Shown here: one piece after another, positions 2,811-47,138 of the stretch
Position numbering within the stretch: the stretch's first letter is position 1
How the letters are laid out: every line of letters starts with the position of its first letter
Source of the DNA: Rickettsiales bacterium
GTDB lineage: Bacteria > Pseudomonadota > Alphaproteobacteria > Methylaequorales > Methylaequoraceae
Assembly (NCBI GenBank): GCA_002689325.1
Contig: NZFP01000003.1
Coordinates: 13,217-77,216, forward strand
Reading direction: 5' to 3'
Length of the DNA: 64,000 nt
The notes under the pieces: model-generated
Databases searched by the model: none
Told to the model about the DNA's origin: nothing
The model's input: the letters and a program-made list of their open reading frames with translations, nothing else
Made by a program: the position numbers and the translations under genes

Positions 2811-5800
2811 TTACAAGTTTCCAAAAGCAACGTTAGCTGCTGTCATACTATCATTATCATAACTATTAAGTGTAGCTAAACGAACTAACTCAGTCTGCTC
2901 AACAGTACCATTAGTTCCACTATTTTCCCATCCCCAGATACTAGTGTTACCAGAATTTCCAGTTACAATAAGAGCATCTTCAACAGTTGAAATATCAGTG
3001 CTACCATCAGTTGTAATTCTAAAATTACTTAGGAAGTTTGAAACACCAGCAGAAGCAGTGTGATTTGCATTATTAGCTGTAAAGTTAAAAACAATTGGAA
3101 GGTTTCCACTGCTAGCATTAATATTATATACAGAACCATTAGCGCCGTTATCAGATTCAAAAGTTACTGATCTTGAATAATTGTTTGTAAAATTATATCC
3201 AAATTTTAAAGTATCAGCTGCACTAAAAGTTCTTATTGTATCAGCACCCTCCAGAAAATCAGAAAAGTAATAAGTATCACTTCCACCATTTCCGGTTAAA
3301 TCATCAGCTCCTAAGCCACCAAAAAAAGTATCATTACCGCTTCCCCCTTTAAAAGAATCATTACCGCTAAAACCATCAAATCGCCAAGCATCTGATGATG
3401 TTGATTTATCTTCAGAGTCATCATTATTAGTACCAGTTATAGTATTTCCACTTCCTGATCCACTTCCGCCACCACCATTTTCCTCCTCTTCCTCTTCAAA
3501 AAGTTCCGGTTCAAAAAAGCCCATATATAGTGAAGGATCATCAAAAAAATAATTCATAGGTTCTACATAGTTTTCAGAGCCACCCATCATAGGACCACCA
3601 AAAGGATCAGGTCCAAAACCGCCAGGTCCTCCAGGTCCACCCATCGGACCACCAAAAGGATCAGGTCCAAAACCGCCAGGTCCTCCATAAGGATCAGGAC
3701 CAAAACCTCCAGGACCACCCATTGGGCCACCAAGAGGATCACCAAAACCTCCAGGACCGCCCATATGACCACCCATTGGACCACCCATTGGACCAGCATA
3801 AGGATCAGGTCCAAAACCTCCAATAGGGCCTGATGTAAAACCACCTATTGGTGAGCCAAATGCTCCAACTGGACTAAATGTGGCCGCTCCAGGAGGTTGA
3901 GCACCCATAAATTGTCCAGGAACCATGCCACTGGGGCCACCAGTCCCAAAATCTCCAGGACCGCCAAAACCACCAGGGCCACCAGGTCCAAAATCTCCAG
4001 GACCACCTGGACCGCCAAAACCGACAGGTCCTCCCGGACCACCAAATGGGTCACCAGGTCCTCCAGGTCCACCTGGGCCGCCAAAGGGATCACCAAATCC
4101 ACCAGGGTCACCAAATGGGTCACCAGGTCCTCCAGCGCCACCTGGACCACCAAAGGGATCACCAAATCCGCCAGGTCCACCTGGACCGGCAAAGGGATCA
4201 TCAAATCCACCAGGGCCACCAAAAGGATCACCAAAATCTCCAGGACCACCAGGTCCAAAATCTCCAGGACCACCAGGTCCAAAATTTCCAGGCCCTCCAG
4301 GGCCACCAGGTCCAAAACCTCCAGGAGGTGAAGGTAAACCAGCGGCTTCTGCTGCTGCTGCCATAGCTTGCTCTGGGCTTAATCCGTCTGCTAAAGCTGT
4401 CTCAAACGCCTCTCTTGCAACTTCTTCTTGTTCAGGCGATGGTCCGCCAGGTCCACTGAAATCAGCCGAACCGCCAGGTCCAAAGTCACCGGGACCACCT
4501 TCTCCAGATGGTAAGGGTTCTCCATCTGGTCCAAGGGGTGGGCCGCCTTCACCGGGTCCTAAGGGTTCTCCATCCGGACCAATTGGAGGACCACCTTCTC
4601 CAGGTGGTAAGGGTTCTCCATCTGGTCCAAGGGGTGGACCGCCTTCTCCAGGTGGTAAGGGTTCTCCATCCGGACCAATTGGAGGACCACCTTCTCCTTC
4701 AGCTAATACTTCTCCATCAGGTCCAACTGGTGGGCCCTCTTCACCTTCAGGAGGACCACCTTCTTCTCCTTCAGGAGGACCTTCACCTTCAGCAAGAGGC
4801 TCTCCGTCAGGTCCAACTGGTGGGCCTTCTTCTCCTTCAGGGGGACCCTCTTCTCCTTCACCTTCTTCTGCAGGACCTTCCTCAGTTACTTGTTCTTCAC
4901 CGGCTTCTTCTTCACCTTCTTCTTCAGCAGCTTCTTCCTCTTGAGCCTGTTCTTCCTGAGCTTGTTCTTGGGGAGGTGGCGCAGCTTGAGGCTGTGGTGC
5001 TACCGCTGGAGTTGGTGGTAATACATTAAGTGCAGTACCGTAATTAGCTTGAATCTGTGCTGTAGTTAAAATTACTGGTGGTGGTGGTGGTGCAGTAAAA
5101 CTTGAAATACTTGTTGTTGCACCAACTTGAGCTAAAACTTGTGTTCCTCCATCGTTACTTACAGCGATTTGTCCAACTCCTCCATCTGCATCTTGAAGTA
5201 AAGTAAAACTGTTTTGATTTCCTTCAACAGCTGCCTTTCCAGCAACAGTTGTTCCTCTGATACCTATAACTGCAACTGGTGTTTTAACTGACATTGCATC
5301 AGGTCCGGTTTTAGCTATTTCACCACTAACAAAACTGAAAGCACCTTCAAGCATATCAACAGCCATACTACCCGTTCCCGTTGTTGCATCGTAAACTAAC
5401 TCGTCTAAAACCATCTTTCCTCCATCGGATAGAGAAAGTGTCGTTTTATCTAAAAAAACTAAACCTACAGCTCCCGAACCTTCTGTTTCAATAGTATCAC
5501 CTTGAAAAACTGGGTCTCCTGCATTTAAGTTGGTAGTTGTTCCGTCTAATCTTGTTGCTTTTGCTGTTCCAGAAACAGTGGAAACTTCACCAATAGAGAG
5601 AATATTACCATCAGCAGCTTGGGCATACTGACCCTTCGCTAAAGGACCAGCTAGTGACCTTACAAGAGAACCATTTAAAAGCAAACCGTTTTCAGTTAAT
5701 AAAGACGGTAATTCAAAATTACTAAAATAATCAATAAGTATGACTTGATCACCATTATCAGATGTTGCAATTAAGTCACTGTTATTTCTTGAAAAATTAG

Positions 5801-5930
5801 ATTTTGGTAACCAAGAAGGTAAGTTTTCTATCTTAAGAGAATTACCCGAATAAAGGTTTAGTGCTTTGGGTTGACTGTTTGCTAATGAGTCATCGTTAAA
5901 TTTATCAGTAAAGTTAATTTCTTTTAACAT
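2811..5930 (-). CDS. Secreted modular protein, paralog B (1039 aa): FecR-like N-domain, very long Glu/Pro/Gly/Phe/Asp repeat region, four RTX nonapeptides, T1SS-style tail
   Basis: Single uninterrupted 1039-aa ORF. The N-terminus has no hydrophobic signal peptide. The FecR-like core is GDPVFQGDTIETEGSGAVGLVFLDKTTLSLSDGGKMVLDELVYD...GAFSFVSGEI...VKTPVAVIGIRGT (about 5210-5590). The RTX block is GFSGNDSFKGGSGNDTFFGGLGADDLTGNGGSDTYY. The C-terminal tail is ALIVTGNSGNTSIWGWEN...AANVAFGNL. Confidence 0.9.
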   Translation of the reverse strand: MLKEINFTDKFNDDSLANSQPKALNLYSGNSLKIENLPSWLPKSNFSRNNSDLIATSDNGDQVILIDYFSNFELPSLLTENGLLLNGSLVRSLAGPLAKGQYAQAADGNILSIGEVSTVSGTAKATRLDGTTTNLNAGDPVFQGDTIETEGSGAVGLVFLDKTTLSLSDGGKMVLDELVYDATTGTGSMAVDMLEGAFSFVSGEIAKTGPDAMSVKTPVAVIGIRGTTVAGKAAVEGNQNSFTLLQDADGGVGQIAVSNDGGTQVLAQVGATTSISSFTAPPPPPVILTTAQIQANYGTALNVLPPTPAVAPQPQAAPPPQEQAQEEQAQEEEAAEEEGEEEAGEEQVTEEGPAEEGEGEEGPPEGEEGPPVGPDGEPLAEGEGPPEGEEGGPPEGEEGPPVGPDGEVLAEGEGGPPIGPDGEPLPPGEGGPPLGPDGEPLPPGEGGPPIGPDGEPLGPGEGGPPLGPDGEPLPSGEGGPGDFGPGGSADFSGPGGPSPEQEEVAREAFETALADGLSPEQAMAAAAEAAGLPSPPGGFGPGGPGGPGNFGPGGPGDFGPGGPGDFGDPFGGPGGFDDPFAGPGGPGGFGDPFGGPGGAGGPGDPFGDPGGFGDPFGGPGGPGGPGDPFGGPGGPVGFGGPGGPGDFGPGGPGGFGGPGDFGTGGPSGMVPGQFMGAQPPGAATFSPVGAFGSPIGGFTSGPIGGFGPDPYAGPMGGPMGGHMGGPGGFGDPLGGPMGGPGGFGPDPYGGPGGFGPDPFGGPMGGPGGPGGFGPDPFGGPMMGGSENYVEPMNYFFDDPSLYMGFFEPELFEEEEEENGGGGSGSGSGNTITGTNNDDSEDKSTSSDAWRFDGFSGNDSFKGGSGNDTFFGGLGADDLTGNGGSDTYYFSDFLEGADTIRTFSAADTLKFGYNFTNNYSRSVTFESDNGANGSVYNINASSGNLPIVFNFTANNANHTASAGVSNFLSNFRITTDGSTDISTVEDALIVTGNSGNTSIWGWENSGTNGTVEQTELVRLATLNSYDNDSMTAANVAFGNL
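3267..3374 (-). repeat. Four consecutive hemolysin-type Ca-binding (RTX) nonapeptides, GGxGxDxUx
   Basis: Codon-level reading gives GFSGNDSFK / GGSGNDTFF / GGLGADDLT / GNGGSDTYY. Confidence 0.85.
3587..4960 (-). repeat. Multi-tier low-complexity coding repeats in paralog B
   Basis: Tiers from the N-terminal side: poly-acidic QEQAQEEQAQEEEAAEEEGEEE; a 16-aa unit GEGGPP[IL]GPDGEPL[PG][PS] in about 4 clean and 2 variant copies (about 4490-4830); a helical island; GPGGPGDFG / GDPFGGPGG units (about 3925-4335); and GGFGPDP[YF]GGPMGGPGG units (about 3590-3850). Line 4021-4080 counts 41/60 G+C. Confidence 0.9.
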
Positions 5931-5941
5931 TAAATATAAAA

Positions 5942-7276
5942 TTAGTTTTCAACATTTTTTGGTTGCATTAACTGAACGCTATCTAAAGTAAGTCCTCCCA
6001 TTAAACTTAGTAAAGTGTAACTATTTATTAAAACCTCAATTTTTGCTGCTATGGCATCAGCTTGTGCATTTATGAATGCTGTTTCACCATTAAGAACATC
6101 TAAGAGTGTTCTATTACCTGCTTGTCTTTCTGTTCTTGCAAGCTCTAAAAATTCACTTGAAATTCTAGCTTGGTTTGTAAGAAACTGCGCATTTTTCTGA
6201 GCAGTTAATAAACCGTCCCAAGTAGTTCTTAGCATTTGTTTAATCATTGATTCTTGATCCCTTATCCTGGTAGACGTTGCTAAATAAGATTCAACTGCAG
6301 CTTCCTTACCAGCGTATTCAGACAAGCTTAAATTAAGCGGATAGGAAAAATCAACCTTTGCAGAACTTTCTCTTTTAAAACCCACTATTCCTCCAAAATC
6401 TTGTTTCTCAGAATGACTTATTATACCTTTAACGGTTGGAAACAACGTTGCTTTTGCTGTATTAATTCCTTCCTTACTAATTTCTTCAGTAATTCTCGCA
6501 GCTACTAATGAGGGATTTTTTTTCATTGTTAATTTTTCAGCCTCGTCAAGAGATTTGGGTAAAGAATCAAAAACAGATTGTAAGAGAAGAAGACTATTTA
6601 GATTTTTTGGAAAAATTTCAAAAACATATTCAAATTCGTGTTTTGCTGCAGATAAAACACCTTCAAATTGAATTTGTCTTGCTTGAGCACCTGCCAATTG
6701 AGTTTTGGCTTGAAGTACATCAGATGTTAATCCACCACCAGCAGAAACAGCTGCATCTTCTAATTCTGTTTGTTTTTTAATATTCGCAACTGATTGAATA
6801 GCGTATTTTACACTTTCTCGTGACTGAATTACTCTTAAATAAGCAGTTATGGCTCTCAGCAAAATATCATTCTTAATTTGATTTTCCATTGCTCTTGATT
6901 GTTTAAGCGACAACTTCGATGTTTTAACGGTTGATCTTGTAAGACCAAAATCTGTTATTGTTTGAGTTATCTTAGCAGTCGCATCTCTTGCGGCTAATTG
7001 CGTGTTGTTACCAGCACCATATTTAATAATATTTTCATGACCATAATTTGCAGTAACATCTAAAGATGGAAAAAAACCACCTCTAGACTGCTTTAATCTT
7101 AATTTAGCTGCCTCTACGTCATTTTTGGTGGCCTTTATCATCTTATGATTTCTTAAAACACTTTTAAGGGCGGAATCTAAATTAAAATACTCGATTTCTG
7201 GAGTGTTATTTTGATTTTCCTGACTTCCGGCAGAACTAAAACTTAGAACAAATATAAATAATATTAAAAGTCTCAT
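5942..7276 (-). CDS. tolC: TolC-family outer membrane efflux/type I secretion protein
   Basis: 444 aa with signal peptide MRLLILFIFVLSFSSAGSQ. It has the two-repeat OEP-type helical pattern (LKSVLRNHKMIKATKNDVEAAKLRLKQSRGGFFPSLDV...; LTSDVLQAKTQLAGAQARQIQFEG...). Its stop is 11 bp upstream of paralog B on the same strand. Confidence 0.85.
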   Translation of the reverse strand: MRLLILFIFVLSFSSAGSQENQNNTPEIEYFNLDSALKSVLRNHKMIKATKNDVEAAKLRLKQSRGGFFPSLDVTANYGHENIIKYGAGNNTQLAARDATAKITQTITDFGLTRSTVKTSKLSLKQSRAMENQIKNDILLRAITAYLRVIQSRESVKYAIQSVANIKKQTELEDAAVSAGGGLTSDVLQAKTQLAGAQARQIQFEGVLSAAKHEFEYVFEIFPKNLNSLLLLQSVFDSLPKSLDEAEKLTMKKNPSLVAARITEEISKEGINTAKATLFPTVKGIISHSEKQDFGGIVGFKRESSAKVDFSYPLNLSLSEYAGKEAAVESYLATSTRIRDQESMIKQMLRTTWDGLLTAQKNAQFLTNQARISSEFLELARTERQAGNRTLLDVLNGETAFINAQADAIAAKIEVLINSYTLLSLMGGLTLDSVQLMQPKNVEN

Positions 7277-7344
7277 AACAAAAAGTTACCCACAAACTTT
7301 ATATTGTGAATAAATATACGACAAAATACAATATTTTTTTAAAA

Positions 7345-8067
7345 TTAACACGATTTTTTTGACGAATCTAGGTATAAAGACTTATTATCTAAAAATTTTA
7401 AAAAACCAGAAAATAACTGTTTAGATCCTCCTTCAAACCTTAATTCATGCTTTAGTCTACTTGCAAATTCAACACCTACATCTAATCCAAACATAAGAGA
7501 TGCTAAAATGTCAGCATCTAAGATTATTTTTTGGACATGGTCATCAACTTTTTCTGGTTTGATTGGGAAATATGTACTTCTAAATATTTTTTTTATTCTT
7601 TGGTTTTTTTTAAAATTAGGTTTTGCTCTAAATAAATTTCTACTCAATTCACTAAAACTTTTTTCCTCTTGATAAAATGATTGATTTTGAATTCTTCTAC
7701 CCAAATGACCTAAATCATGCGTTAGTGCAATTATTATTAGTAGAAATTTATCTTCATTATTTTTTAAATTTGACAGTTTAGCTAGGAGACATGCAATAAT
7801 AATTACAGACTTAAAGTGATGTGAGTCATGATAAGTGTTGTAAGTTACATTTTTTGAACATAAAGCTGATAGTTTTTTTAAAATTGGTTTCATCTTATCA
7901 ATCTTGTGGACGTTCAAATCATTTAAGCAATTTAAACATAAGTTATATAAATCGGGAAGTTTGTGATTAGATAGGATAAATTTTTTAAGAACATCTTTAG
8001 TTCTCGGCCAATTATTAGCAATGTAAGATATTGAAGGAAAGTTTTTTTCAAAAGTGTAATTTCTCAT
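7345..8067 (-). CDS. HD-domain phosphohydrolase with class I cyclic-nucleotide-phosphodiesterase-like motifs
   Basis: 240 aa. Shows the H...HD...D pattern: YHDSHHFKSV, ALTHDLGHLGRRIQNQSF and LDADILASL. The HDxxHxG...NQ arrangement resembles the PDE class I signature with a 2-residue insertion. Its start codon overlaps the cyclase stop by 4 nt (8064-8067). Confidence 0.6.
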   Translation of the reverse strand: MRNYTFEKNFPSISYIANNWPRTKDVLKKFILSNHKLPDLYNLCLNCLNDLNVHKIDKMKPILKKLSALCSKNVTYNTYHDSHHFKSVIIIACLLAKLSNLKNNEDKFLLIIIALTHDLGHLGRRIQNQSFYQEEKSFSELSRNLFRAKPNFKKNQRIKKIFRSTYFPIKPEKVDDHVQKIILDADILASLMFGLDVGVEFASRLKHELRFEGGSKQLFSGFLKFLDNKSLYLDSSKKSC

Positions 8068-10376
8068 TTACTTTTCATGACCCAAACTCCATCCCAATTT
8101 TTTGGTTTTTCAGAAATGAGCTGGTTACATCTATCAATATAAGTTTCAGATAATTTATCTTCAGAGTTAATTTTTAGACATTCCTTAAATGAAGTAATTG
8201 CTTGATTAAAATCTCCAGAAATATATTTTTTTCTTCCTTCATTAAAATGATTCACTACATCCATAAGGTTAGGAAAGGTTTTTTCACTGTGATAATCCAA
8301 GACTTCATGAACTCCAACAGGTTCAGTTTTGCCCTTAACAACAACATCATCAATGTACCTTATCCTGTATGTGCCTTTCAGTTTTTTGAAGGTAAAATCA
8401 CTAATTAGAATTCTTGCGTTGTACTGCTTACATGCACTTTCAAGCCTAGCGGCAAGATTAACGCCATCACCAATCATCGTATAATCCATTCTTTTTTGCG
8501 ACCCAATGTTTCCTGCTACAATTTTATCAGTATTAAGCCCTAAGCCCATATCCAGGGGAGGTTTCCCATCTTTTTCTCTTTGGTCATTCCAGTCCCAAAG
8601 TCTTTTAATCATATTGATACCGGCTTTAACACCTCTATCCTCATCATCTTCATGAGAAATAGGCAATCCAAAAGCTGCCATAATTGCATCTCCAATAAAT
8701 TTATCAAGCATACCTCCTTGTTCAGAAATACACTCAACCATAATTTCAAAATATTCATTTAAAAGTTTTACTGTTCCTTGAGCACCCAAAGATTCTGTAA
8801 TATTTGTAAAACTTCTCAGGTCAGAAAATAAAAGTGTTGCAGTAGTGTCAAGCCCACCCATTATATCAGCACCATCTTCAAGTAATTGGTCTGCAATTCC
8901 AGGGTCCATATATCTTGACATTGTAGATTTCATTCTTTTTTCTGAAGAAATATCTTCAATCATTAATAGAATACCAAGAAAACTTTCTTTTTCGTCAGTT
9001 CTACCATCACTGTCTTCGTTAATTAAAGGTAATATTGTGAGGTTAACTGAAATAATTTCATTTTTTTCTGTTTCGTGATTAAAAACTTCTATTTCAGCAT
9101 CCATTATTAGTTCTGGTTCCTTAGAATCTCTTACTAAATTAATTTTTTCTTCAATCCATTGATTCTGCTCTATAAAGAATTTATTTGAATCTAAGCCTAT
9201 TAAGTTTTTTTCATTTACTTTAAAAATTTTAAGACCTGATTTATTACAAGTTACAATTTTTCCATCACCATCAATTGTAATTACCCCATTAGACATACTT
9301 GAAAGCATACTTTCATTATATTTTCTGGATTTCGAAACATCATCAAAAAGCTTTGCGTTCTCTAATGCAATTGCAACTTGCTGTGTAAAAGCTTTGAGTC
9401 TTGATTCATCTTCTTCAGTAAACTTCCCCCCTTTTTTGTTTAATACCTGAGTGCAGCCAATAACTTTACCATTTTTATTTGTTACGGGAACACATAAAAT
9501 TGATCTCGTAAAATACCCAGTTTGTTTGTCAAAGGCAGGATTAAACCTTAAATCAGCATAGGCATAAGGAATATTCATAGTTTTACCAGAAGTGAAAACA
9601 CTACCAGCAATACCCGCTGTGTTAGGTAATCTTATTTCCCCCATTCCTTCTCCCATTGCAACTCTAGAAAAAAGTTCATTTGTTTTTTCATCATTTAAAA
9701 ATAATGTAGCTCTATCTGCATTTAGCATTCTCGTTGCTTCTTCCATTACCCTTTTTAGAAGAGCACTTAAATCAATTTCAGCAGTCACATCTGAAACAAT
9801 ACTTATAAATTCCATTTCTTGAGCACGTTTTTTTTCGAAAAATTCGTTGTTTTGAGCATTTTGTATTGAAACTGCTGCTTGAGTAGCTACTGAATTAACA
9901 AATTCTAAGTTGTCCTTTGTAAACCTTCCTTTATTTTTATTTAATACTTGAATTACCCCAATAATTTTTCCATTAACAGTCCTGACTGGTGAACAAATCA
10001 TATTTTTTGTTTTATAACCTGTTTCCTGATCAACATCTTTGTTAAACCTTTCATCTAAATAAACATCATGAATAATCTCCCCAACTTGAGATTGAAAAAT
10101 ACCTCCTGCAATTCCAACTGTATTTAAAATTCTTATTTCTCTTGTCAAATCCCCTTGAGCAACTCTTGAATATAATTCATTAGTTTCTTCATCATTTAAA
10201 AATAATGTCCCTCTATCAGCATCAACATTTTTTGTAACAAACTCAACTATTGTCCACAGAATTTCTGAGAGGTTTTTAATAGAGGCAATTTTTCTTGAAA
10301 TATCTAGCAGTAATTTGGATCTACTTATCTCCGCCTTAAGAGTTTTAATATCTTCAGGTTTTTTATTTTTTTTCAT
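8064..10376 (-). CDS. GAF-GAF-PAS class III adenylate/guanylate cyclase with TPR-like tail (CyaB1/CyaB2-like architecture)
   Basis: Catalytic domain is about 8290-8850: LLFSDLRSFT, DKFIGDAIMAAFGLP, VAGNIGSQKRMDYTMIGDGVNLAARLES. Both metal-binding Asp residues and the Asn/Arg are present. The substrate positions are Lys (DKFIGD) and Thr (YTMIG), as in class IIIb adenylate cyclases. GAF-B carries an intact NK-x4-F-x3-DE motif (NKKGGKFTEEDE, about 9405-9440). GAF-A has NKNKGRFTKDNL. Confidence 0.9.
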   Translation of the reverse strand: MKKNKKPEDIKTLKAEISRSKLLLDISRKIASIKNLSEILWTIVEFVTKNVDADRGTLFLNDEETNELYSRVAQGDLTREIRILNTVGIAGGIFQSQVGEIIHDVYLDERFNKDVDQETGYKTKNMICSPVRTVNGKIIGVIQVLNKNKGRFTKDNLEFVNSVATQAAVSIQNAQNNEFFEKKRAQEMEFISIVSDVTAEIDLSALLKRVMEEATRMLNADRATLFLNDEKTNELFSRVAMGEGMGEIRLPNTAGIAGSVFTSGKTMNIPYAYADLRFNPAFDKQTGYFTRSILCVPVTNKNGKVIGCTQVLNKKGGKFTEEDESRLKAFTQQVAIALENAKLFDDVSKSRKYNESMLSSMSNGVITIDGDGKIVTCNKSGLKIFKVNEKNLIGLDSNKFFIEQNQWIEEKINLVRDSKEPELIMDAEIEVFNHETEKNEIISVNLTILPLINEDSDGRTDEKESFLGILLMIEDISSEKRMKSTMSRYMDPGIADQLLEDGADIMGGLDTTATLLFSDLRSFTNITESLGAQGTVKLLNEYFEIMVECISEQGGMLDKFIGDAIMAAFGLPISHEDDEDRGVKAGINMIKRLWDWNDQREKDGKPPLDMGLGLNTDKIVAGNIGSQKRMDYTMIGDGVNLAARLESACKQYNARILISDFTFKKLKGTYRIRYIDDVVVKGKTEPVGVHEVLDYHSEKTFPNLMDVVNHFNEGRKKYISGDFNQAITSFKECLKINSEDKLSETYIDRCNQLISEKPKNWDGVWVMKSK

Positions 10377-10379
10377 ATA

Positions 10380-11000
10380 TCAATCTTTCTTTAGTTTATT
10401 TTCATAGTTTTGTATTATTTTTTCTATCTCTTCTCTTAATTTTTGACTTGATGATTTAAGTTGTTGAATTTCATTATTTGAGTTAAGTACTGCATTTTGA
10501 ACAGCTTCCTTTTTTTCAAACTTCAAACTTTCAAGTTCGTTTCTTAAATCTGATATAGATAATTTTAATTCTTTTATTTCTTGACTAGATTCCAAAATAG
10601 CTTTTTGGACTGACTCTTGCTTATTAAATTTTAGGTTTTCAAGCTCATCTCTCAATGCTGTACAGGATTTTTTTAATTGATTAATTTCATCTGTAGAGGC
10701 TTGAATTTCTCTTTGAACAGCTTCTTTTTTTTCAAACTTAAGTTTATCTAATTGGCTTCTTTGTTCAGTTATTGTTAGTTGAAGTTGTTTGATTTCATCT
10801 GCTGTTTGAAGTATTGCATCTTGAATTTCTTTGTTTTTTAGAAATTGTTGATTTTCTAATTGATCTCTCAACGAACTTATTGTTGAGTGTAAATTAACTA
10901 ATTCATCGTTATTTTCAAGCCTAATTTTTTGTACAAAGTCATTAAATTCAGCAAGAAAAGCCGGCTTATCTTTTTTTAGTTTGTCTATTAAATTCGCCAT
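10380..11000 (-). CDS. Coiled-coil protein built from 36-aa repeats, function unknown
   Basis: 206 aa. Its stop is 3 nt before the cyclase start. The repeat consensus is L.(L/S).I..LR.ELE.LKF.K.E.VQ.A.L.S..EI.Q, with invariant Phe at residues 53, 89, 125 and 161. Confidence 0.75.
   Translation of the reverse strand: MANLIDKLKKDKPAFLAEFNDFVQKIRLENNDELVNLHSTISSLRDQLENQQFLKNKEIQDAILQTADEIKQLQLTITEQRSQLDKLKFEKKEAVQREIQASTDEINQLKKSCTALRDELENLKFNKQESVQKAILESSQEIKELKLSISDLRNELESLKFEKKEAVQNAVLNSNNEIQQLKSSSQKLREEIEKIIQNYENKLKKD
10416..10892 (-). repeat. 108-bp (36-aa) tandem coding repeat, 4 full copies plus a partial fifth
   Basis: Repeat units start at residues 37, 73, 109, 145 and 181 when counted on the given translation. 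Confidence 0.8.
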
Positions 11001-11028: not shown

Positions 11029-11502
11029 TTAAAAATGATCTAAACAATGATAATATCTAATATTTTTCACTTTGGTTTTGTTAACTACTCTCCAGGAAAT
11101 TTTTCCCCCTACCTTAATGTCTAATTTTTTTACACATCCGTCAGGAATTTCAAGAACACCAATCACATGAGTGACTGAGGAAATTATTTTTTTGGAAAAT
11201 GGCTCCCCTTTCTTAATAAGGACAACTTTATTTTGATCATTTATAAAGATTATATCCAATGGAATTTGTGTATTGTGCATCCAAATTTTTACAATTTTAG
11301 GTTTTTTGTAAAGTAAAAGTAGTCCATTAGTTTTAGATAGTTTATTAACAAACATTAAACCTTTTTGTTTTTCTTCTTCAGTTTTTGCTAATTTAACAAG
11401 TAGGTTGGAGAATGTTTCTGAAAATACTATTGCTTCTTTGGAAATTGAATTTGAAGGCAAAATTATAAGAAACAGAAAAAAACTATAAAGTAAAAACCTC
11501 AC
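11029..11502 (-). CDS. DUF192 (COG1430) family exported protein
   Basis: Signal peptide MRFLLYSFFLFLIILPSNS. Also has QKGLMF...IWMHNTQIPLDIIFINDQNKVV, typical of DUF192. Confidence 0.7.
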   Translation of the reverse strand: MRFLLYSFFLFLIILPSNSISKEAIVFSETFSNLLVKLAKTEEEKQKGLMFVNKLSKTNGLLLLYKKPKIVKIWMHNTQIPLDIIFINDQNKVVLIKKGEPFSKKIISSVTHVIGVLEIPDGCVKKLDIKVGGKISWRVVNKTKVKNIRYYHCLDHF

Positions 11503-12982: not shown

Positions 12983-13198
12983 CTATTTCTTCCTATAAAT
13001 ACCTTTTTTGACTTTTTCTGCTACACTTATTAAAAATTTCGCTATTTTTTCATCAGTATTTTGTAGCGATAACTCCCTTATTACTTCATCAATAAAAGCA
13101 CCAATTGCTATATACGGATTAATTTTTTTTTTTCTGCATTCAGCTCTTGCTTTCAATACGATTGCTGAAGCTATTTTCTTTTGTTCATCTTCACTCAT
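12983..13198 (-). CDS. Hypothetical 71-aa protein, coupled to the 3' end of umuC
   Basis: Its start overlaps the umuC stop by 4 nt (13195-13198). No recognised motif. Confidence 0.4.
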   Translation of the reverse strand: MSEDEQKKIASAIVLKARAECRKKKINPYIAIGAFIDEVIRELSLQNTDEKIAKFLISVAEKVKKGIYRKK

Positions 13199-14505
13199 AC
13201 TTTTATCTTTGGTATATCACACCAATTAGTAGTATAGCAAGGTGATCTATATTCTGATTTCATTGACCATTTTTCATTTTTTTTTGAATAGAAAGAACCG
13301 TTTTCATCTGAAGATAATCTTAATTTACTATCCCCAAATTTCTTATTAACACTGTCCATTATTTTCATTAATTTTATACTATCACTTTTTTTTTTGTAGT
13401 AGCCCTGATTTCTATCATGAAATAAACTTTTCTGTATATTATCATAATCACAAAAATCAGAAAGGATTACTCCTACTTTACTGTATAAAAAATCAGATAA
13501 ATAAATTTCCTTAAGTAATTTTTGAGACATATTCCATATTACCCTTACATCATTCGTTCCCTCTAAAAAAGAATAGGTTTTTGTATTGTTATATTTTTTT
13601 TTTTGATACTTCGAGGTCTTTAAAAAAACGGTTATAGATTTACAAAAAAAATTATAATTTCTCATCTTAGACGATGCTTTCTGGACATACACTATAAGCG
13701 CACTTCTTATATCTTCATAAGCGTTAAGTTTTGCACCAAAAGATCTGGAGACACATATTGACTTTTTTTTAGCTAATTCTTTTTCAACCTCATTACAGAC
13801 AATACCTTTTAACTCAAGAATTAAACGTTGCAAAATAACTCCTTTATTTTTTCTTGCAAAACTTTCATTGAACTCTTTCAATTCAAAAGCGTTATTTACA
13901 TCATTATCTATTAAGAACTTAGCTAATTTAGTACCTATCCCCCAAATATCATTCACATTTGTTTGTTGTAAAACATAATCTGTGAATTTTTTAGATCTTA
14001 GTTCAAATATACTATGATCATCTATTTTAAAATAAGGATACTGAGTTTTTTTTTTTATAACTCTATTTGCAATTTTCGCTAACGTTTTAGTTTTAGCTAA
14101 ACCTATACTCACTGGAATACCTGTCCATTTTAATATTTTCTTTGCCAATTTATTGCAATAACTAACCCTGTCATTTTTTAAATCTAGAATGAAGAACGCC
14201 TCATCTATTGAATAAACTTCAACAATTGGTAGACTTTTTTTTAATATATTCATTATTCGATTTGATATATCACCGTAAAAAGAATAGTTAGATGATAAAA
14301 CAGAGATATTATTTTCTATTATAAATTTTTTAAGTTTAAAAAATGGTTCCCCCATTTTAATTCCAATTTTTTTTGCTTCTTCAGATCGAGAGATTACACA
14401 GCCGTCATTATTTGATAGTATAACAATAGGTTTTTCTAAAAGCTTGGGGTTAAATAATCTTTCACATGAAACATAAAAATTATTACAATCTAACAGACCT
14501 ATCAT
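13195..14505 (-). CDS. umuC: Y-family translesion DNA polymerase, UmuC (Pol V catalytic subunit)
   Basis: N-terminus MIGLLDCNNFYVSCERLFNPKLLEKPIVILSNNDGCVISRSEEAKKIGIKMGEPFF and SIDEAF are classic UmuC/ImpB motifs. It lies immediately downstream of umuD. Confidence 0.9.
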   Translation of the reverse strand: MIGLLDCNNFYVSCERLFNPKLLEKPIVILSNNDGCVISRSEEAKKIGIKMGEPFFKLKKFIIENNISVLSSNYSFYGDISNRIMNILKKSLPIVEVYSIDEAFFILDLKNDRVSYCNKLAKKILKWTGIPVSIGLAKTKTLAKIANRVIKKKTQYPYFKIDDHSIFELRSKKFTDYVLQQTNVNDIWGIGTKLAKFLIDNDVNNAFELKEFNESFARKNKGVILQRLILELKGIVCNEVEKELAKKKSICVSRSFGAKLNAYEDIRSALIVYVQKASSKMRNYNFFCKSITVFLKTSKYQKKKYNNTKTYSFLEGTNDVRVIWNMSQKLLKEIYLSDFLYSKVGVILSDFCDYDNIQKSLFHDRNQGYYKKKSDSIKLMKIMDSVNKKFGDSKLRLSSDENGSFYSKKNEKWSMKSEYRSPCYTTNWCDIPKIKV

Positions 14506-14509
14506 TACT

Positions 14510-14914
14510 TTAAGATAAATTATGTATTACGTGTGTAGCAACTCCCCAGATAGTTGTCTCCATTTTAGAGTCTAATATTATTTTAGGATAGTTTTCATTC
14601 TCAGATTTTAAATAACATTTTCCTTGTTTATCCTTTAAAAATTTTTTAATTATCAACTCTCCATTCAGAGAAGCAACAACAATAGACTGATTTTTAGGGG
14701 TCAATGATTTATCTACAACCATTATATCATTATTATAGATACCTACATTAATCATTGAGTCACCAGATACCCTGACAAAAAATGTTGATTCAATATTATT
14801 TACTAAATATTTACCTATATCTAAGTTTTCTTCAATATAGTTCTCAGCAGGTGAAGGGAAACCAGCTGCAGCACCGACTATTATTATTTTTTTATTTTTC
14901 AATTTTTTCCTCAT
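14510..14914 (-). CDS. umuD: UmuD, LexA-like S24 self-cleaving peptidase
   Basis: AAAGFPSPAENY cleavage region, SGDSM catalytic Ser, and ELIIKKF Lys. Confidence 0.9.
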   Translation of the reverse strand: MRKKLKNKKIIIVGAAAGFPSPAENYIEENLDIGKYLVNNIESTFFVRVSGDSMINVGIYNNDIMVVDKSLTPKNQSIVVASLNGELIIKKFLKDKQGKCYLKSENENYPKIILDSKMETTIWGVATHVIHNLS

Positions 14915-46535: not shown

Positions 46536-47138
46536 ATGTTAACTTTAAAACAAAAAAAGTTATTAGACTTTTTAATTGATTATCACAATAAAAATCGTGT
46601 CTACCCTACTTTTGACGAGATGAGAGATTTTTTGCAAATTAAATCAAAATCAGGTATTCACAAACTATTGTTAAGTTTAGAAGAAAAAGGTTTTGTTAAT
46701 AGGCTTCCTCATAAGGCCAGAGCACTGAGTATCAATACAAATGTTAATGAAAAAGAAAAAGATCTACCATTCCTCGGAAGAATTGCTGCTGGCAATCCTA
46801 TTGAAGCCATTACGGAAAGTTTTGAGTACATTTCAGTACCTAATTATCTTGTAAATAACAAAGACGAACATTTCACTCTAGAAGTTACTGGAGATTCAAT
46901 GATTGATGCCGGAATTTATGACGGTGATATTGTTGTTATAAGAAAAACAGAAGTTGCTAATTCTGGCGATATTGTAGTAGCTTTAATAGATCAAAATGAA
47001 GTTACTCTAAAAAGATTTAGATCTTTCAAAAATTCTAAAGCTCTTGAACCTGCTAATAAAAATTATAAAATTAGATTATTCGGAGAGGATAGAGTTAAAA
47101 TACAAGGCACGTTGGCAGGGTTAATCAGAAAATTCTAA
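46536..47138 (+). CDS. lexA: LexA SOS repressor
   Basis: Winged-helix N-terminus (LTLKQKKLLDFLIDY), cleavage site RIAAGNPIEA, GDSM Ser and VTLKRF Lys. Confidence 0.95.
   Translation: MLTLKQKKLLDFLIDYHNKNRVYPTFDEMRDFLQIKSKSGIHKLLLSLEEKGFVNRLPHKARALSINTNVNEKEKDLPFLGRIAAGNPIEAITESFEYISVPNYLVNNKDEHFTLEVTGDSMIDAGIYDGDIVVIRKTEVANSGDIVVALIDQNEVTLKRFRSFKNSKALEPANKNYKIRLFGEDRVKIQGTLAGLIRKF

Follow-up and report, generated by a model that had tools for sequence, protein, structure and literature searches.

Does a compact gene cluster in an uncultured marine alphaproteobacterium encode both the enzyme that makes a cyclic nucleotide and the enzyme that removes it? The cluster lies within the 64,000-nucleotide stretch of DNA analysed here (the window), from a Rickettsiales bacterium, and contains genes for a coiled-coil repeat protein (CC), an adenylate cyclase (AC) and a small protein of the HD superfamily. 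Our preferred reading, to which we assign a probability of about 0.6, is that these three genes constitute a single, translationally coupled transcription unit through which cAMP is produced, sensed and removed. A cassette in which cAMP is made, amplifies its own synthesis and is degraded is plausible, and the evidence for each of its parts is considered below.

Organisation and conservation of the locus

The open reading frames are located on the minus strand, exactly where the initial annotation had placed them, and encode CC (10380..11000, 206 aa), the cyclase (8064..10376, 770 aa, also recognised by Pfam and PDB matches) and the HD protein (7345..8067, 240 aa, with a Pfam HD match). The tight packing proposed for these genes can be read directly from the DNA. 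A 3-nt spacer (tat; 10377..10379, minus strand) separates the CC stop codon TGA from the cyclase start codon ATG ('...gat TGA tat ATG aaa...'), and the stop codon of the cyclase overlaps the start codon of the HD gene by 4 nt (ATGA; 8064..8067, minus strand; '...agt aaA TGA gaa...'). This ATGA overlap is a signature of translational coupling, and no terminator-like site was found between the three genes.

Of 25 related loci in marine Alphaproteobacteria, all from different species-level genomes, 23 share the order CC-AC-HD, and the juxtaposition is therefore not a product of chance; conservation in relatives had been put forward as a check on the original proposal, and it holds at this level. 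The hosts are uncultured low-GC marine Alphaproteobacteria. Among loci with an uninterrupted cyclase ORF, 19 of 20 preserve the 4-nt overlap between the cyclase and HD genes; between CC and the cyclase, the distance in orthologous loci varies from an overlap of 1 nt to a gap of 24 nt. Two divergent lineages (L024 and L025) carry an intact HD gene between the flanking DUF192 and TolC genes, with both CC and AC absent from the DUF192-HD-TolC-RTX locus, so the HD protein is not strictly dependent on this cyclase.

The description of the first gene product as a coiled-coil repeat protein was borne out by four 36-residue repeats (residues 37-180) followed by a partial fifth. Neither a signal peptide nor a specific domain was detected in CC, which gave only generic coiled-coil matches below the Pfam and NCBIfam cutoffs. 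Its orthologues span 160-209 aa, implying that the number of repeats varies; no relative turned up beyond the clade, and at any one locus CC and the cyclase are either both there or both missing. CC may act as a scaffold or regulator associated with the cyclase, which is the weakest step of the proposal.

The cassette is embedded in a conserved string of genes, all on the minus strand. Upstream, 28 nt from CC, lies a gene for a DUF192 (COG1430) protein with a hydrophobic leader at its N-terminus (11029..11502; Pfam DUF192, 2.8e-25). Downstream, 68 nt after the HD gene, is a TolC-family outer-membrane channel (5942..7276; OEP, 5.1e-50; TIGR01844, 2.5e-55). Both of these genes are syntenic in 25/25 clade loci. 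The next gene, also syntenic, encodes a 1039-aa protein with a FecR domain, Pro/Gly/Glu repeats and RTX repeats (2811..5930; Pfam FecR, 3.9e-7; HemolysinCabind, 3.9e-6) that is likely to be a type I secretion substrate. The position of the cassette within this DUF192 ... TolC - FecR/RTX string allows the speculation that its output is an envelope function or type I secretion. A simple motif scan of the 64-kb window, together with Pfam annotation of the neighbouring genes, found no cAMP effector.

The cyclase and its tandem GAF domains

The 770-aa protein consists of GAF-A, GAF-B, a PAS domain, a cyclase homology domain and a short helical C-terminus, in that order, and Pfam recovers the GAF-GAF-PAS cyclase architecture first described for it (two GAF domains, 1.6e-39; PAS, 4e-8; Guanylate_cyc, 4.1e-22). 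The cyclase homology domain (8322..8840, minus strand; aa 513-685), whose best PDB matches are the cyclase domains of Cya2, CyaB and PAC, possesses the complete class III catalytic set, including the Lys/Thr pair of class IIIb, that had been reported: the metal ligands D519 and D563, the substrate pair K559/T633 and the transition-state residues N640 and R644. All six are invariant in 21 orthologues. The domain matches and this complete, invariant hexad identify the protein, by its sequence, as a soluble class IIIb adenylate cyclase of the CyaB1/CyaB2 type. The orthologues are 81-98% identical, and the cyclase domain and GAF-B are the best conserved parts of the protein (mean identity to the window protein of 96% and 94%, respectively), followed by GAF-A (81%). 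The least conserved folded domain is the PAS domain (8949..9314, minus strand; aa 355-476; Pfam PAS, 33.7 bits; PAS_9, 31 bits), at 73%.

The two GAF domains differ in the NKFDE motif. GAF-A (9858..10271, minus strand; aa 36-173) reads N146-K147-x4-F152-x3-N156-L157 and has thus lost the Asp-Glu of the motif. GAF-B (9363..9773, minus strand; aa 202-338) retains the full NK-x4-F-x3-DE motif ascribed to it (N313-K314-x4-F319-x3-D323-E324), which is invariant in the 21 orthologues. The best PDB match of the tandem is 1YKD, the cAMP-bound tandem GAF of Anabaena CyaB2 (E = 3.4e-44), followed by the GAF domains of PDE5, PDE2 and PDE10, and GAF-B is ~42-46% identical to its CyaB2 counterpart. NKFDE is the signature of cNMP-binding GAF domains, and the activity of CyaB2 is raised by cAMP binding (PMC4411481). 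[quoted passage not shown] GAF-B is a candidate cAMP-binding regulatory domain. The cyclase, as a homodimer, would convert ATP to 3',5'-cAMP; by analogy with CyaB1 and CyaB2, GAF-B, possibly together with GAF-A, would bind this product and stimulate catalysis, generating positive feedback, with the PAS domain adding a further input.

It is possible, if doubtful, that the cyclase and the PDE-like enzyme operate as proposed but without positive feedback, the GAF domains binding cGMP, another small molecule or nothing at all. In this case, they would serve in dimerisation or receive a different input, and the cyclase would be regulated by the PAS domain, by bicarbonate/CO2 or by CC. The Lys/Thr pair places the enzyme in class IIIb, members of which are known to be responsive to bicarbonate/CO2, and the missing Asp-Glu of GAF-A also fits such a scheme. 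In addition, the NKFDE motif marks a subfamily but makes no contact with the ligand itself, and which ligand a domain prefers is difficult to predict (PMC4411481). However, conservation of GAF-B is on a par with that of the catalytic domain (94% versus 96%) and its motif is invariant, the CyaB2 tandem, which binds cAMP, is the nearest relative of known structure, and the domain architecture is identical to that of CyaB1, self-activating in the account of Kanacher 2002 given by PMC4411481.

The HD protein and class I phosphodiesterases

The initial annotation likened the HD protein to cut-down class I cyclic-nucleotide phosphodiesterases (PDEs), and the searches support a specific resemblance to these enzymes rather than to HD proteins in general. 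The generic Pfam HD model matched with 27.4 bits (cutoff, 22), whereas PDEase_I scored 16.8 bits, below its gathering cutoff of 24.8. When the PDB was searched, on the other hand, class I PDEs were matched by the single sequence (E = 6e-3), by a close-family profile (E = 8e-4) and by a wide-family profile (E = 2.5e-11). The single sequence matched 35 PDEs and then four chance entries with E of at least 1, which were the only non-PDE proteins among the matches listed for any of these searches. The alignments with PDEs begin at residue ~29-37, within the helices that precede the YHN motif, and the alignment with 5VYD continues through E134, T165, D186 and E208. An AF2 model of the protein (pLDDT 82, 12 helices) has as its best Foldseek matches in the PDB the catalytic domains of PDE5, PDE2 and PDE9 (TM 0.55-0.63, with weak E-values of about 1e-2); YpgQ-type small HD hydrolases follow with a TM of 0.45-0.51, normalised by query. 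Within the HD family, PDEase_I matches 32 of 47 members and the generic HD model 21, and seven distant relatives exceed the PDEase_I cutoff, although they match only positions 1 to ~55 of its 238. Similarity of the HD protein to the PDE domain is likewise weak past the first ~60 residues, and PDE catalytic domains exceed the protein in length by ~90 residues. Together, the sequence searches and the predicted structure support its assignment as a shortened and strongly diverged version of the class I 3',5'-cyclic-nucleotide PDE catalytic domain. According to PMC10865986, class I PDEs are eukaryotic enzymes of which bacteria and archaea offer 'a few examples'; we found no characterised bacterial member in the literature.

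Three motifs underlie this resemblance, and all of those originally reported (YHDSHH, HDLGHLG and DADI) are present; only the '...NQ' extension of the second is one residue out of register. Y79-H80-D-S-H83-H84 (7816..7833, minus strand) aligns with the class I Y-H-N-x-x-H, such that H80 corresponds to the general-acid His and H84 to the first Zn-ligand His. H117-D118-L-G-H121-L-G123 (7699..7719, minus strand) aligns with H-D-[LIVMFY]-x-H-x-[AG], which contains the metal-ligand His and Asp. In the D184-A-D186-I motif (D184-A185-D186, 7510..7518, minus strand), D186 corresponds to the Asp of A-D-L in the 'TADLHNP' of 5VYD and is a candidate fourth metal ligand. Across the wide family H80, H84, H117 and D118 are invariant, and conservation reaches at least 90% at Y79, H121, G123, E134, T165, D186 and E208. 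In the individual family alignments, D186 shows no variation in A3 and is conserved to at least 90% in A2, and the L024 and L025 proteins retain D186 and not D184. The seven-residue core H-D-x-x-H-x-G occurs in 115 of 118 close relatives, and the spacing H-x3-H-x33-D conforms to the class I rule. None of these 118 carries the full PROSITE class I signature, which in the HD protein fails at the [NQ] position, and the purine-selecting Gln of class I PDEs has no conserved counterpart in the family. A GYP motif is absent from the HD protein.

Distant HD relatives are found in several signalling contexts. In an unrelated Alcaligenaceae MAG (L026), an HD homologue lies 42 nt downstream of a membrane cyclase, and the gene for a cNMP-binding protein is two genes away. 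Partner-switch operons of the GAF-PP2C / STAS / HATPase_c_2 type contain further homologues; one such operon adjoins a cNMP_binding gene and includes a GAF domain whose best match is PDE2A GAF-B (8.8e-11). One homologue is fused to a HATPase_c_2 kinase. Beside some distant relatives such signalling neighbours are absent.

A different substrate for the HD protein, such as a 2',3'-cNMP, a nucleotide or an alarmone, is unlikely but deserves to be weighed. In this scenario, the HD gene belongs to an older DUF192-HD-TolC backbone and adjoins the cyclase only because a two-gene CC-AC unit was inserted or retained beside it. This would account for L024 and L025, where DUF192, HD, TolC and RTX genes occur without CC or AC, and it is compatible with the incomplete PROSITE signature, the lack of a conserved Gln, a PDE similarity concentrated in the metal-binding core, the YpgQ-type hydrolases among the structural neighbours and the fact that, for the window protein, only the generic HD model exceeds its Pfam cutoff. 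Against it, class I PDEs are the only HD-superfamily structures in the PDB among the sequence and profile matches listed, and these matches take in the N-terminal helices specific to PDEs; the family has kept the general-acid motif Y-H-x-x-H; the overlap with the cyclase gene is kept in nearly all loci; and HD homologues are independently linked to a different cyclase in L026 and elsewhere to cNMP-type GAF and cNMP_binding genes. It is very improbable that the HD protein is catalytically inactive and regulates the cyclase or a partner-switching kinase by binding cNMPs or proteins, as its small size and its recurrence beside, or fused to, HATPase_c_2 anti-sigma-type kinases might suggest, since its presumed catalytic and metal residues remain invariant or nearly so in a family diverged to ~20% identity, a conservation typical of active enzymes.

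Under the preferred cAMP reading, homology and residue conservation lead us to infer that the HD protein would hydrolyse cAMP to 5'-AMP, as it retains the general-acid His (H80), the metal ligands H84, H117, D118 and D186, and H121 and E134 in supporting roles. Through the ATGA overlap, synthesis of the PDE would be linked to that of the cyclase, such that a self-amplifying cyclase would always be accompanied by its off-switch, and the outcome would be a pulse or threshold rather than a runaway signal.

Comparison with known systems

The cyclase shares with CyaB1 and CyaB2 of Anabaena sp. PCC 7120 the GAF-GAF-PAS-class III cyclase order, the Lys/Thr pair and the NKFDE motif of GAF-B. Unlike those enzymes, it is found in a low-GC marine alphaproteobacterium rather than a cyanobacterium, its GAF-A lacks the Asp-Glu pair, its autoactivation is proposed by analogy, and it is coupled to an upstream coiled-coil protein and a downstream PDE-like HD protein. 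To our knowledge, neither coupling has been described for cyaB1 or cyaB2.

In common with the class I PDE catalytic domain (PF00233; human PDE8A, PDE5A, PDE2A and PDE9A; 5VYD), the HD protein has a predicted all-helical HD-superfamily fold, with Y-H-x-x-H, H-D-x-x-H-x-G, a downstream Glu, (A/S)-T and an Asp ligand in matching order. It differs in being bacterial, in its size (240 aa and 12 predicted helices, compared with ~270-330 aa and 16 helices) and in the absence of regulatory domains and of a conserved glutamine switch. If the inference holds, it would represent a very small bacterial counterpart of the animal-type phosphodiesterases that degrade cAMP and cGMP. YpgQ-type nucleotide pyrophosphohydrolases and HD-GYP c-di-GMP phosphodiesterases share the HD metal-binding core, but are absent from the sequence and profile matches listed for the HD protein, whose long helical region before the first His aligns instead with PDEs.

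The role proposed for the HD protein, removal of the cAMP made by a bacterial cyclase, resembles that of CpdA/Rv0805 (class III) and of class II enzymes (e.g. in Vibrio fischeri), although their folds and catalytic motifs are unrelated to it: class II PDEs carry HxHLDH and class III PDEs are calcineurin-like metallophosphoesterases (PMC4222275). The pairing itself has a parallel in CAPE of Marchantia polymorpha, in which a class III adenylate cyclase is fused to a PDE domain (PMC5159850), so that enzymes for making and degrading a cyclic nucleotide also constitute one expression unit, there as a single eukaryotic polypeptide and here as two proteins from overlapping genes.

Organization and conservation of the cassette

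Three genes on the minus strand encode a 206-aa coiled-coil protein (CC; 10380-11000), a 770-aa GAF-GAF-PAS cyclase (AC; 8064-10376) and a 240-aa phosphodiesterase (PDE)-like HD protein (HD; 7345-8067). The tight packing that the initial annotation had claimed for this trio is reproduced in the ORF table, with the same coordinates on the same strand, and both junctions were read in the DNA: a spacer of 3 nt separates the CC stop codon from the AC start (gat TGA tat ATG), and the stop codon of AC overlaps the start codon of HD as ATGA. A scan found no terminator-like hairpin between the three genes, and a promoter scan gave 34 sites against 34.8 expected from shuffling, which in such AT-rich DNA amounts to no signal. 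The window has a G+C content of 25-30% and contains no tRNA or Rfam matches. Its other annotated genes are alphaproteobacterial housekeeping genes (ntrBC/ntrYX, trkA, hflX, clpB, trpEGDC, eno, pyrG, lexA and umuDC), and the ordinary character of these surroundings indicates that the cassette lies in chromosomal DNA. Neither a scan of the window for CAP-type cyclic nucleotide (cNMP)-binding motifs nor Pfam searches with 30 further window genes found an effector.

A clade scan, covering one genome per GTDB species and locating neighbours by tblastn with the window proteins, yielded 26 loci with an HD relative. The related-clade sources are single-cell genomes and metagenome-assembled genomes (MAGs) of uncultured marine Alphaproteobacteria, some of whose records are labelled Pelagibacteraceae or Rickettsiales. 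The order CC-AC-HD, proposed as a point to check in related genomes, recurs in 23 of these loci (L001-L023), embedded in the longer string orf81-DUF192-CC-AC-HD-TolC-FecR/RTX. By tblastn, the cyclase of the clade loci is 81-98% identical to that of the window, HD 48-91% and CC 47-94%; conservation of the cyclase is thus far above that of HD and CC, and the neighbouring genes are about 50-60% identical. The ATGA overlap between AC and HD is found in 19 of the 20 loci that have an intact cyclase ORF. In three MAG loci (L006, L015 and L021) the AC ORF is interrupted, at about 5700-8000 in each, with tblastn segments still 81-87% identical and no runs of N present at the interruptions, which may represent assembly or frameshift errors, or else decay and pseudogenisation.

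The two most divergent loci, L024 (7492-10124) and L025 (3530-6105), read DUF192-HD-TolC-RTX and have neither CC nor AC, with an HD gene that is intact and keeps all catalytic residues. Since both genes are absent together, CC-AC appears to be a two-gene unit that was inserted or deleted between DUF192 and HD, and HD does not strictly require this cyclase. These two loci supply the chief argument for a rival explanation, according to which HD hydrolyses a substrate other than a 3',5'-cNMP and belongs to an older DUF192-HD-TolC backbone, the adjacency of the cyclase being incidental.

Several features of the wider surroundings were also recorded. Two kilobases upstream of the cassette (13195-14914, minus strand) are umuC, with IMS, IMS_C and DUF4113 domains, and umuD, with Peptidase_S24; this pair is syntenic with the cassette in many related loci, and lexA is present in the window too (46536-47138, plus strand). 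TolC is followed by tandem genes for paralogous giant proteins (2811-5930 and ~3-2585, both minus strand), the second copy running off the start of the window. Both proteins possess an N-terminal FecR domain and a long Pro/Gly/Glu low-complexity region, whose local G+C reaches 47% against a background of 26-30%, and the complete copy has C-terminal RTX repeats. Similarity to the LapA-type 'retention module' is weak and sub-threshold (26 bits against a cutoff of 50). These giant FecR/RTX proteins probably serve as adhesins or as substrates of type I secretion.

The cyclase and its coiled-coil neighbour

Pfam assigns to AC two GAF domains (1.6e-39), a PAS domain and a Guanylate_cyc domain (79.1 bits against a cutoff of 21.9), with only faint TPR-like matches in the last 60 residues, and cyclase domains in the PDB, including Cya2, CyaB and photoactivated cyclases, match at 1e-36 to 1e-22. 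In class III cyclases, a substrate pair of Lys and Thr (Thr in place of Asp marking subclass IIIb) specifies adenylate, while Glu/Cys or Glu/Gly specifies guanylate. The complete catalytic set with a Lys/Thr pair that had been read from the DNA is confirmed: the metal ligands D519 and D563, the transition-state residues N640 and R644, and the substrate pair K559/T633 are all present, and these six residues, together with the GAF-B motif, are invariant in 21 of 21 sequences (the window AC and 20 intact orthologues). The mapping of K559/T633 to function draws on established knowledge of class III cyclases. AC is accordingly placed in subclass IIIb, with a CyaB-type regulatory module and a predicted specificity for adenylate, and a guanylate cyclase identity is ruled out by the Lys/Thr pair.

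The second GAF domain contains a complete NKFDE motif (N313-K314-x4-F319-x3-D323-E324), as originally described; in GAF-A the motif is incomplete (NK-x4-F-x3-NL). NKFDE, or NK-x(n)-F-x3-DE, is the signature of cNMP-binding GAF domains (PMC4411481). The best solved relative of AC is 1YKD, the cAMP-bound tandem GAF of Anabaena CyaB2 (3.4e-44), to whose GAF-B that of AC is ~42-46% identical, and the next PDB matches of the AC GAF domains are PDE5 (2.5e-32), PDE2A (5.5e-29) and PDE10A GAF-B (9.6e-25). The cNMP-binding GAF subfamily takes in PDE2, 5, 6, 10 and 11 as well as CyaB1 and CyaB2. Mean identity to the window AC, calculated per domain over the 20 intact orthologues from related genomes, is 96% for the cyclase homology domain, 94% for GAF-B, 81% for GAF-A, 76% for the C-terminus and 73% for PAS, a pattern to be expected if GAF-B, as in CyaB1, serves as the functional site for a regulatory ligand. 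The activity of CyaB enzymes is raised by the cAMP that they make (PMC4411481, citing Kanacher et al. 2002), and by analogy AC may be autoactivated by cAMP.

The CC protein is built of four regular 36-residue repeats (residues 37-180) and a partial fifth, has no signal peptide, and matches only generic coiled-coil models, all below their cutoffs. Its orthologues range from 160 to 209 aa, which implies a variable number of repeats. No relatives were found outside the clade in a search that returned 10 matches, all from the same clade, and whose candidates were saturated by low-complexity words. That CC and the cyclase are gained or missing together is the sole functional clue for this protein. 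In P0268, a 321-aa database protein from a 1.9-kb metagenomic contig, the DUF192 frame reads on, free of stops, into CC; this may stem from an error in sequencing or be a real read-through or fusion, and a genuine fusion would tie CC to the DUF192 protein, which bears an N-terminal hydrophobic leader.

The HD protein and the class I phosphodiesterases

The initial annotation regarded HD as resembling a cut-down class I cyclic-nucleotide PDE, a reading that the comparisons support. The only model passed is Pfam HD (PF01966), which scores 27.4 bits (cutoff 22) and spans residues 83-189 with the H...HD...D residues. Against PDEase_I (PF00233) the score is 16.8 bits, under the gathering cutoff of 24.8, and covers model positions 1-49 of 238; NCBIfam has no match. 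In the PDB, the similarities nonetheless point clearly to class I PDEs. A phmmer search against all PDB sequences returned 35 of these as its top matches (best E = 6e-3) and no other HD families; all the matches listed for a profile of 24 close relatives were PDEs (E = 8e-4), and once distant relatives had been added all those listed were again PDEs, with PDE8A best (E = 2.5e-11). The alignments with PDEs begin at residue ~29-37 and so cover the helices that precede Y-H-N-x-x-H, which are found in PDEs and are missing from small HD hydrolases. In the alignment with the phosphodiesterase 5VYD, similarity extends through E134, the (A/S)-Thr motif (T165), the Asp ligand D186 and E208.

The family itself is small: when 1.84 billion representatives were searched exhaustively with the profile, just 181 HD relatives came up at E <= 1e-3. 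Aligned members match PDEase_I in 32 of 47 cases and the generic HD model in 21 of 47. When distant members were run singly against PDEase_I, seven of ten scored above the cutoff, among them P0195 (38.3 bits), P0177 (32.7) and P0183 (32.3), yet only over positions 1 to ~55. Direct comparison with PDE4D2, using a template sequence 100% identical to PDB 1OYN, was less productive. An hhalign of the close-family alignment gave a probability of 1% over 47 columns, a result that is uninformative, and not counter to homology, because the template profile consisted of one sequence; hmmsearch with the close, wide and distant family alignments (A1, A2 and A3) aligned the YHxxH...HDxxHxG core only, apart from an extra weak match of A3 (-0.8 bits) at the conserved A-T motif (VLATDM in PDE4D2). 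A tblastn search of PLSDB plasmids with two distant HD relatives gave no match.

At the residue level, H80-x3-H84-x33-D118 fits the class I metal-binding motif H-x3-H-x(25-35)-[DE] (PMC4222275), and H-x3-H followed 25-40 residues on by H-D occurs in 111 of 118 close relatives. The metal ligands H84, H117, D118 and D186 and the general-acid H80 are present in the alignment. Identity within the wide family falls to ~20%; across it, H80, H84, H117 and D118 are invariant, and Y79, H121, G123, E134, T165, D186, S190, E208 and F222 are conserved in at least 90% of members. Aligned with class I enzymes, these conserved positions match the general-acid His, the His/His/Asp/Asp ligands and supporting residues, the ligand and general-acid roles being those described for class I PDEs (PMC13095499). 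The full class I signature, H-D-[LIVMFY]-x-H-x-[AG]-x2-[NQ]-x-[LIVMFY] in PROSITE-type form (taken from PMC10865986), is found in none of the 118 close relatives, failing at [NQ], with its first seven positions kept in 115 of them; the window protein reads H117-D-L-G-H-L-G-R-R-I126-Q-N, with Ile at the [NQ] position. The family also has no conserved Gln C-terminal of D186, the purine-selecting 'glutamine switch', Q217 of the window protein being variable; the conserved F222 could serve as a clamp residue. In the close family the C-terminus (window 7345-7362, minus strand) is near-invariant, ...L-Y-L-D-S-S-K-K-S-C, at least 90% of members keeping the last Cys, and this tail is missing from distant relatives.

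The family alignment gave a confident AlphaFold2 model (mean pLDDT 82, pTM 0.84), which contains 12 helices in 240 aa, compared with 16 in the class I catalytic fold, and whose C-terminal subdomain is ~90 residues shorter. In the PDB, Foldseek ranks PDE5, PDE2 and PDE9 highest, with TM scores of 0.55-0.63 (query-normalised), an rmsd of 7-9 A and weak E values of about 1e-2; YpgQ-type HD hydrolases score lower (0.45-0.51). An HD-GYP c-di-GMP phosphodiesterase was rejected, the GYP motif and any HD_5 match being absent, and RelA/SpoT-type and YpgQ-type identities were discarded likewise, there being no profile matches to them. Judged by these sequence features, the protein would not be filed under PF00233 as now defined, owing to its departures from the PROSITE-type signature, the glutamine and the C-terminal length. 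We regard it as a divergent, minimal branch of the class I catalytic-domain lineage, one that most probably works like a class I PDE.

Distant relatives and the proposed circuit

The neighbourhoods of distant HD relatives bear on whether HD acts on cyclic nucleotides. In an Alcaligenaceae MAG locus (L026, 86-4074), a different cyclase, a 637-aa membrane sensor, is followed after 42 nt by an HD homologue of 289 aa that scores 24.2 bits against PDEase_I, and a CAP-type cNMP-binding protein of 166 aa is encoded two genes away on the opposite strand; this is an independent cluster of cyclase, PDE-like enzyme and receptor. The same opposite strand carries a 185-aa ORF that is nucleosidase-like by eye. 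The nearest outgroup members close partner-switching operons of STAS, GAF-PP2C and HATPase_c_2 genes, and relatives in such operons (STAS, GAF-PP2C/SpoIIE, HATPase_c_2) are found in L027 (926-4063), L028, L030 (3866-6792), L035 (72-3639) and L045. At L035 the HD gene lies between those for GAF-PP2C and the kinase and a cNMP_binding gene adjoins; the best PDB match of the GAF domain is PDE2A GAF-B (8.8e-11), followed by the GAF domains of PDE5, PDE6, PDE10 and CyaB2, which suggests a partner switch under cNMP control that has a PDE-like enzyme of its own. In P0156, a 430-aa metagenomic protein, an RsbW-like HATPase_c_2 anti-sigma kinase domain is naturally fused to a PDE-like HD domain. Some other relatives have no informative neighbours. 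Co-occurrence of HD relatives with cNMP-type GAF domains, cyclases and cNMP-binding proteins is thus a recurring theme, and these independent linkages count against a non-cNMP substrate and an incidental cyclase, the explanation favoured by the intact HD genes of L024 and L025.

What the comparisons establish is an apparently intact class IIIb cyclase, a conserved HD hydrolase of class I PDE ancestry that is predicted to be metal-dependent, and their tight and conserved coupling. In the circuit that we propose, cAMP would bind GAF-B and stimulate the cyclase in positive feedback, the HD enzyme would hydrolyse cAMP and so bound or reset the signal, the ATGA overlap would hold cyclase and HD co-expressed, CC would scaffold or modulate the cyclase, and the output might concern the adjoining TolC and FecR-RTX secretion genes. 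We put the probability of this full make, amplify and degrade model at roughly 0.6, and the interpretation first offered for the trio is supported to the reach of sequence analysis. The host comes from a marine lineage of low G+C whose examined region contains few signalling genes, and at this locus the cyclase ranks with the best-conserved genes, which together suggest that cAMP signalling matters to the host, possibly in connection with those same secretion genes.

A broader proposal, which we advance tentatively and with the odds somewhat against it, is that HD and its ~180 cluster-level relatives form an uncharacterised, bacteria-wide class I-type PDE branch, reduced to a bare catalytic core without the glutamine switch and acting as the dedicated off-enzyme for GAF-read cNMP signals, whether in operons with a CyaB1-like cyclase or in partner-switching modules of GAF-PP2C, STAS and anti-sigma kinase. 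If true, this would be the first bacterial class I-type PDE with a defined role, would place the pairing of GAF and class I PDE domains in bacterial operons, and would bring partner switching and an envelope or type I secretion locus under cNMP control in abundant, streamlined marine bacteria. The literature covered, which is incomplete and so no proof, held no account of the HD family, of the operon or of a role-defined bacterial class I/HD-type cAMP PDE, nor any description of cAMP signalling in SAR11/Pelagibacter-type marine lineages.

Every component of the cassette comes from a known class, AC itself adding a further member to a known cyclase type, and the logic of making, self-amplifying and degrading a signal is what a specialist would expect; what is new, as a variation on known types, is the HD family together with its placement in operons alongside cNMP-type GAF proteins. 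Among the PDEs, class II enzymes are metallo-beta-lactamase-like, class III enzymes are of the CpdA/Rv0805 kind, and the combination of GAF domains with a class I PDE is the hallmark of animal PDE2, 5, 6, 10 and 11. Bacterial cAMP PDEs have been described as class II or class III (PMC4222275), and the class I enzymes as a eukaryotic group to which bacteria and archaea contribute 'a few examples' (PMC10865986). A minimal class I-like HD family wired to cyclases and cNMP-type GAF domains would give bacterial cAMP removal a fourth route, offer a simple model of the catalytic core in a major drug-target family and bear on the origin of the eukaryotic combination of GAF and PDE. A eukaryotic analogue of the pairing of cyclase and PDE is CAPE of Marchantia, where the two are joined in a fusion protein (PMC5159850).
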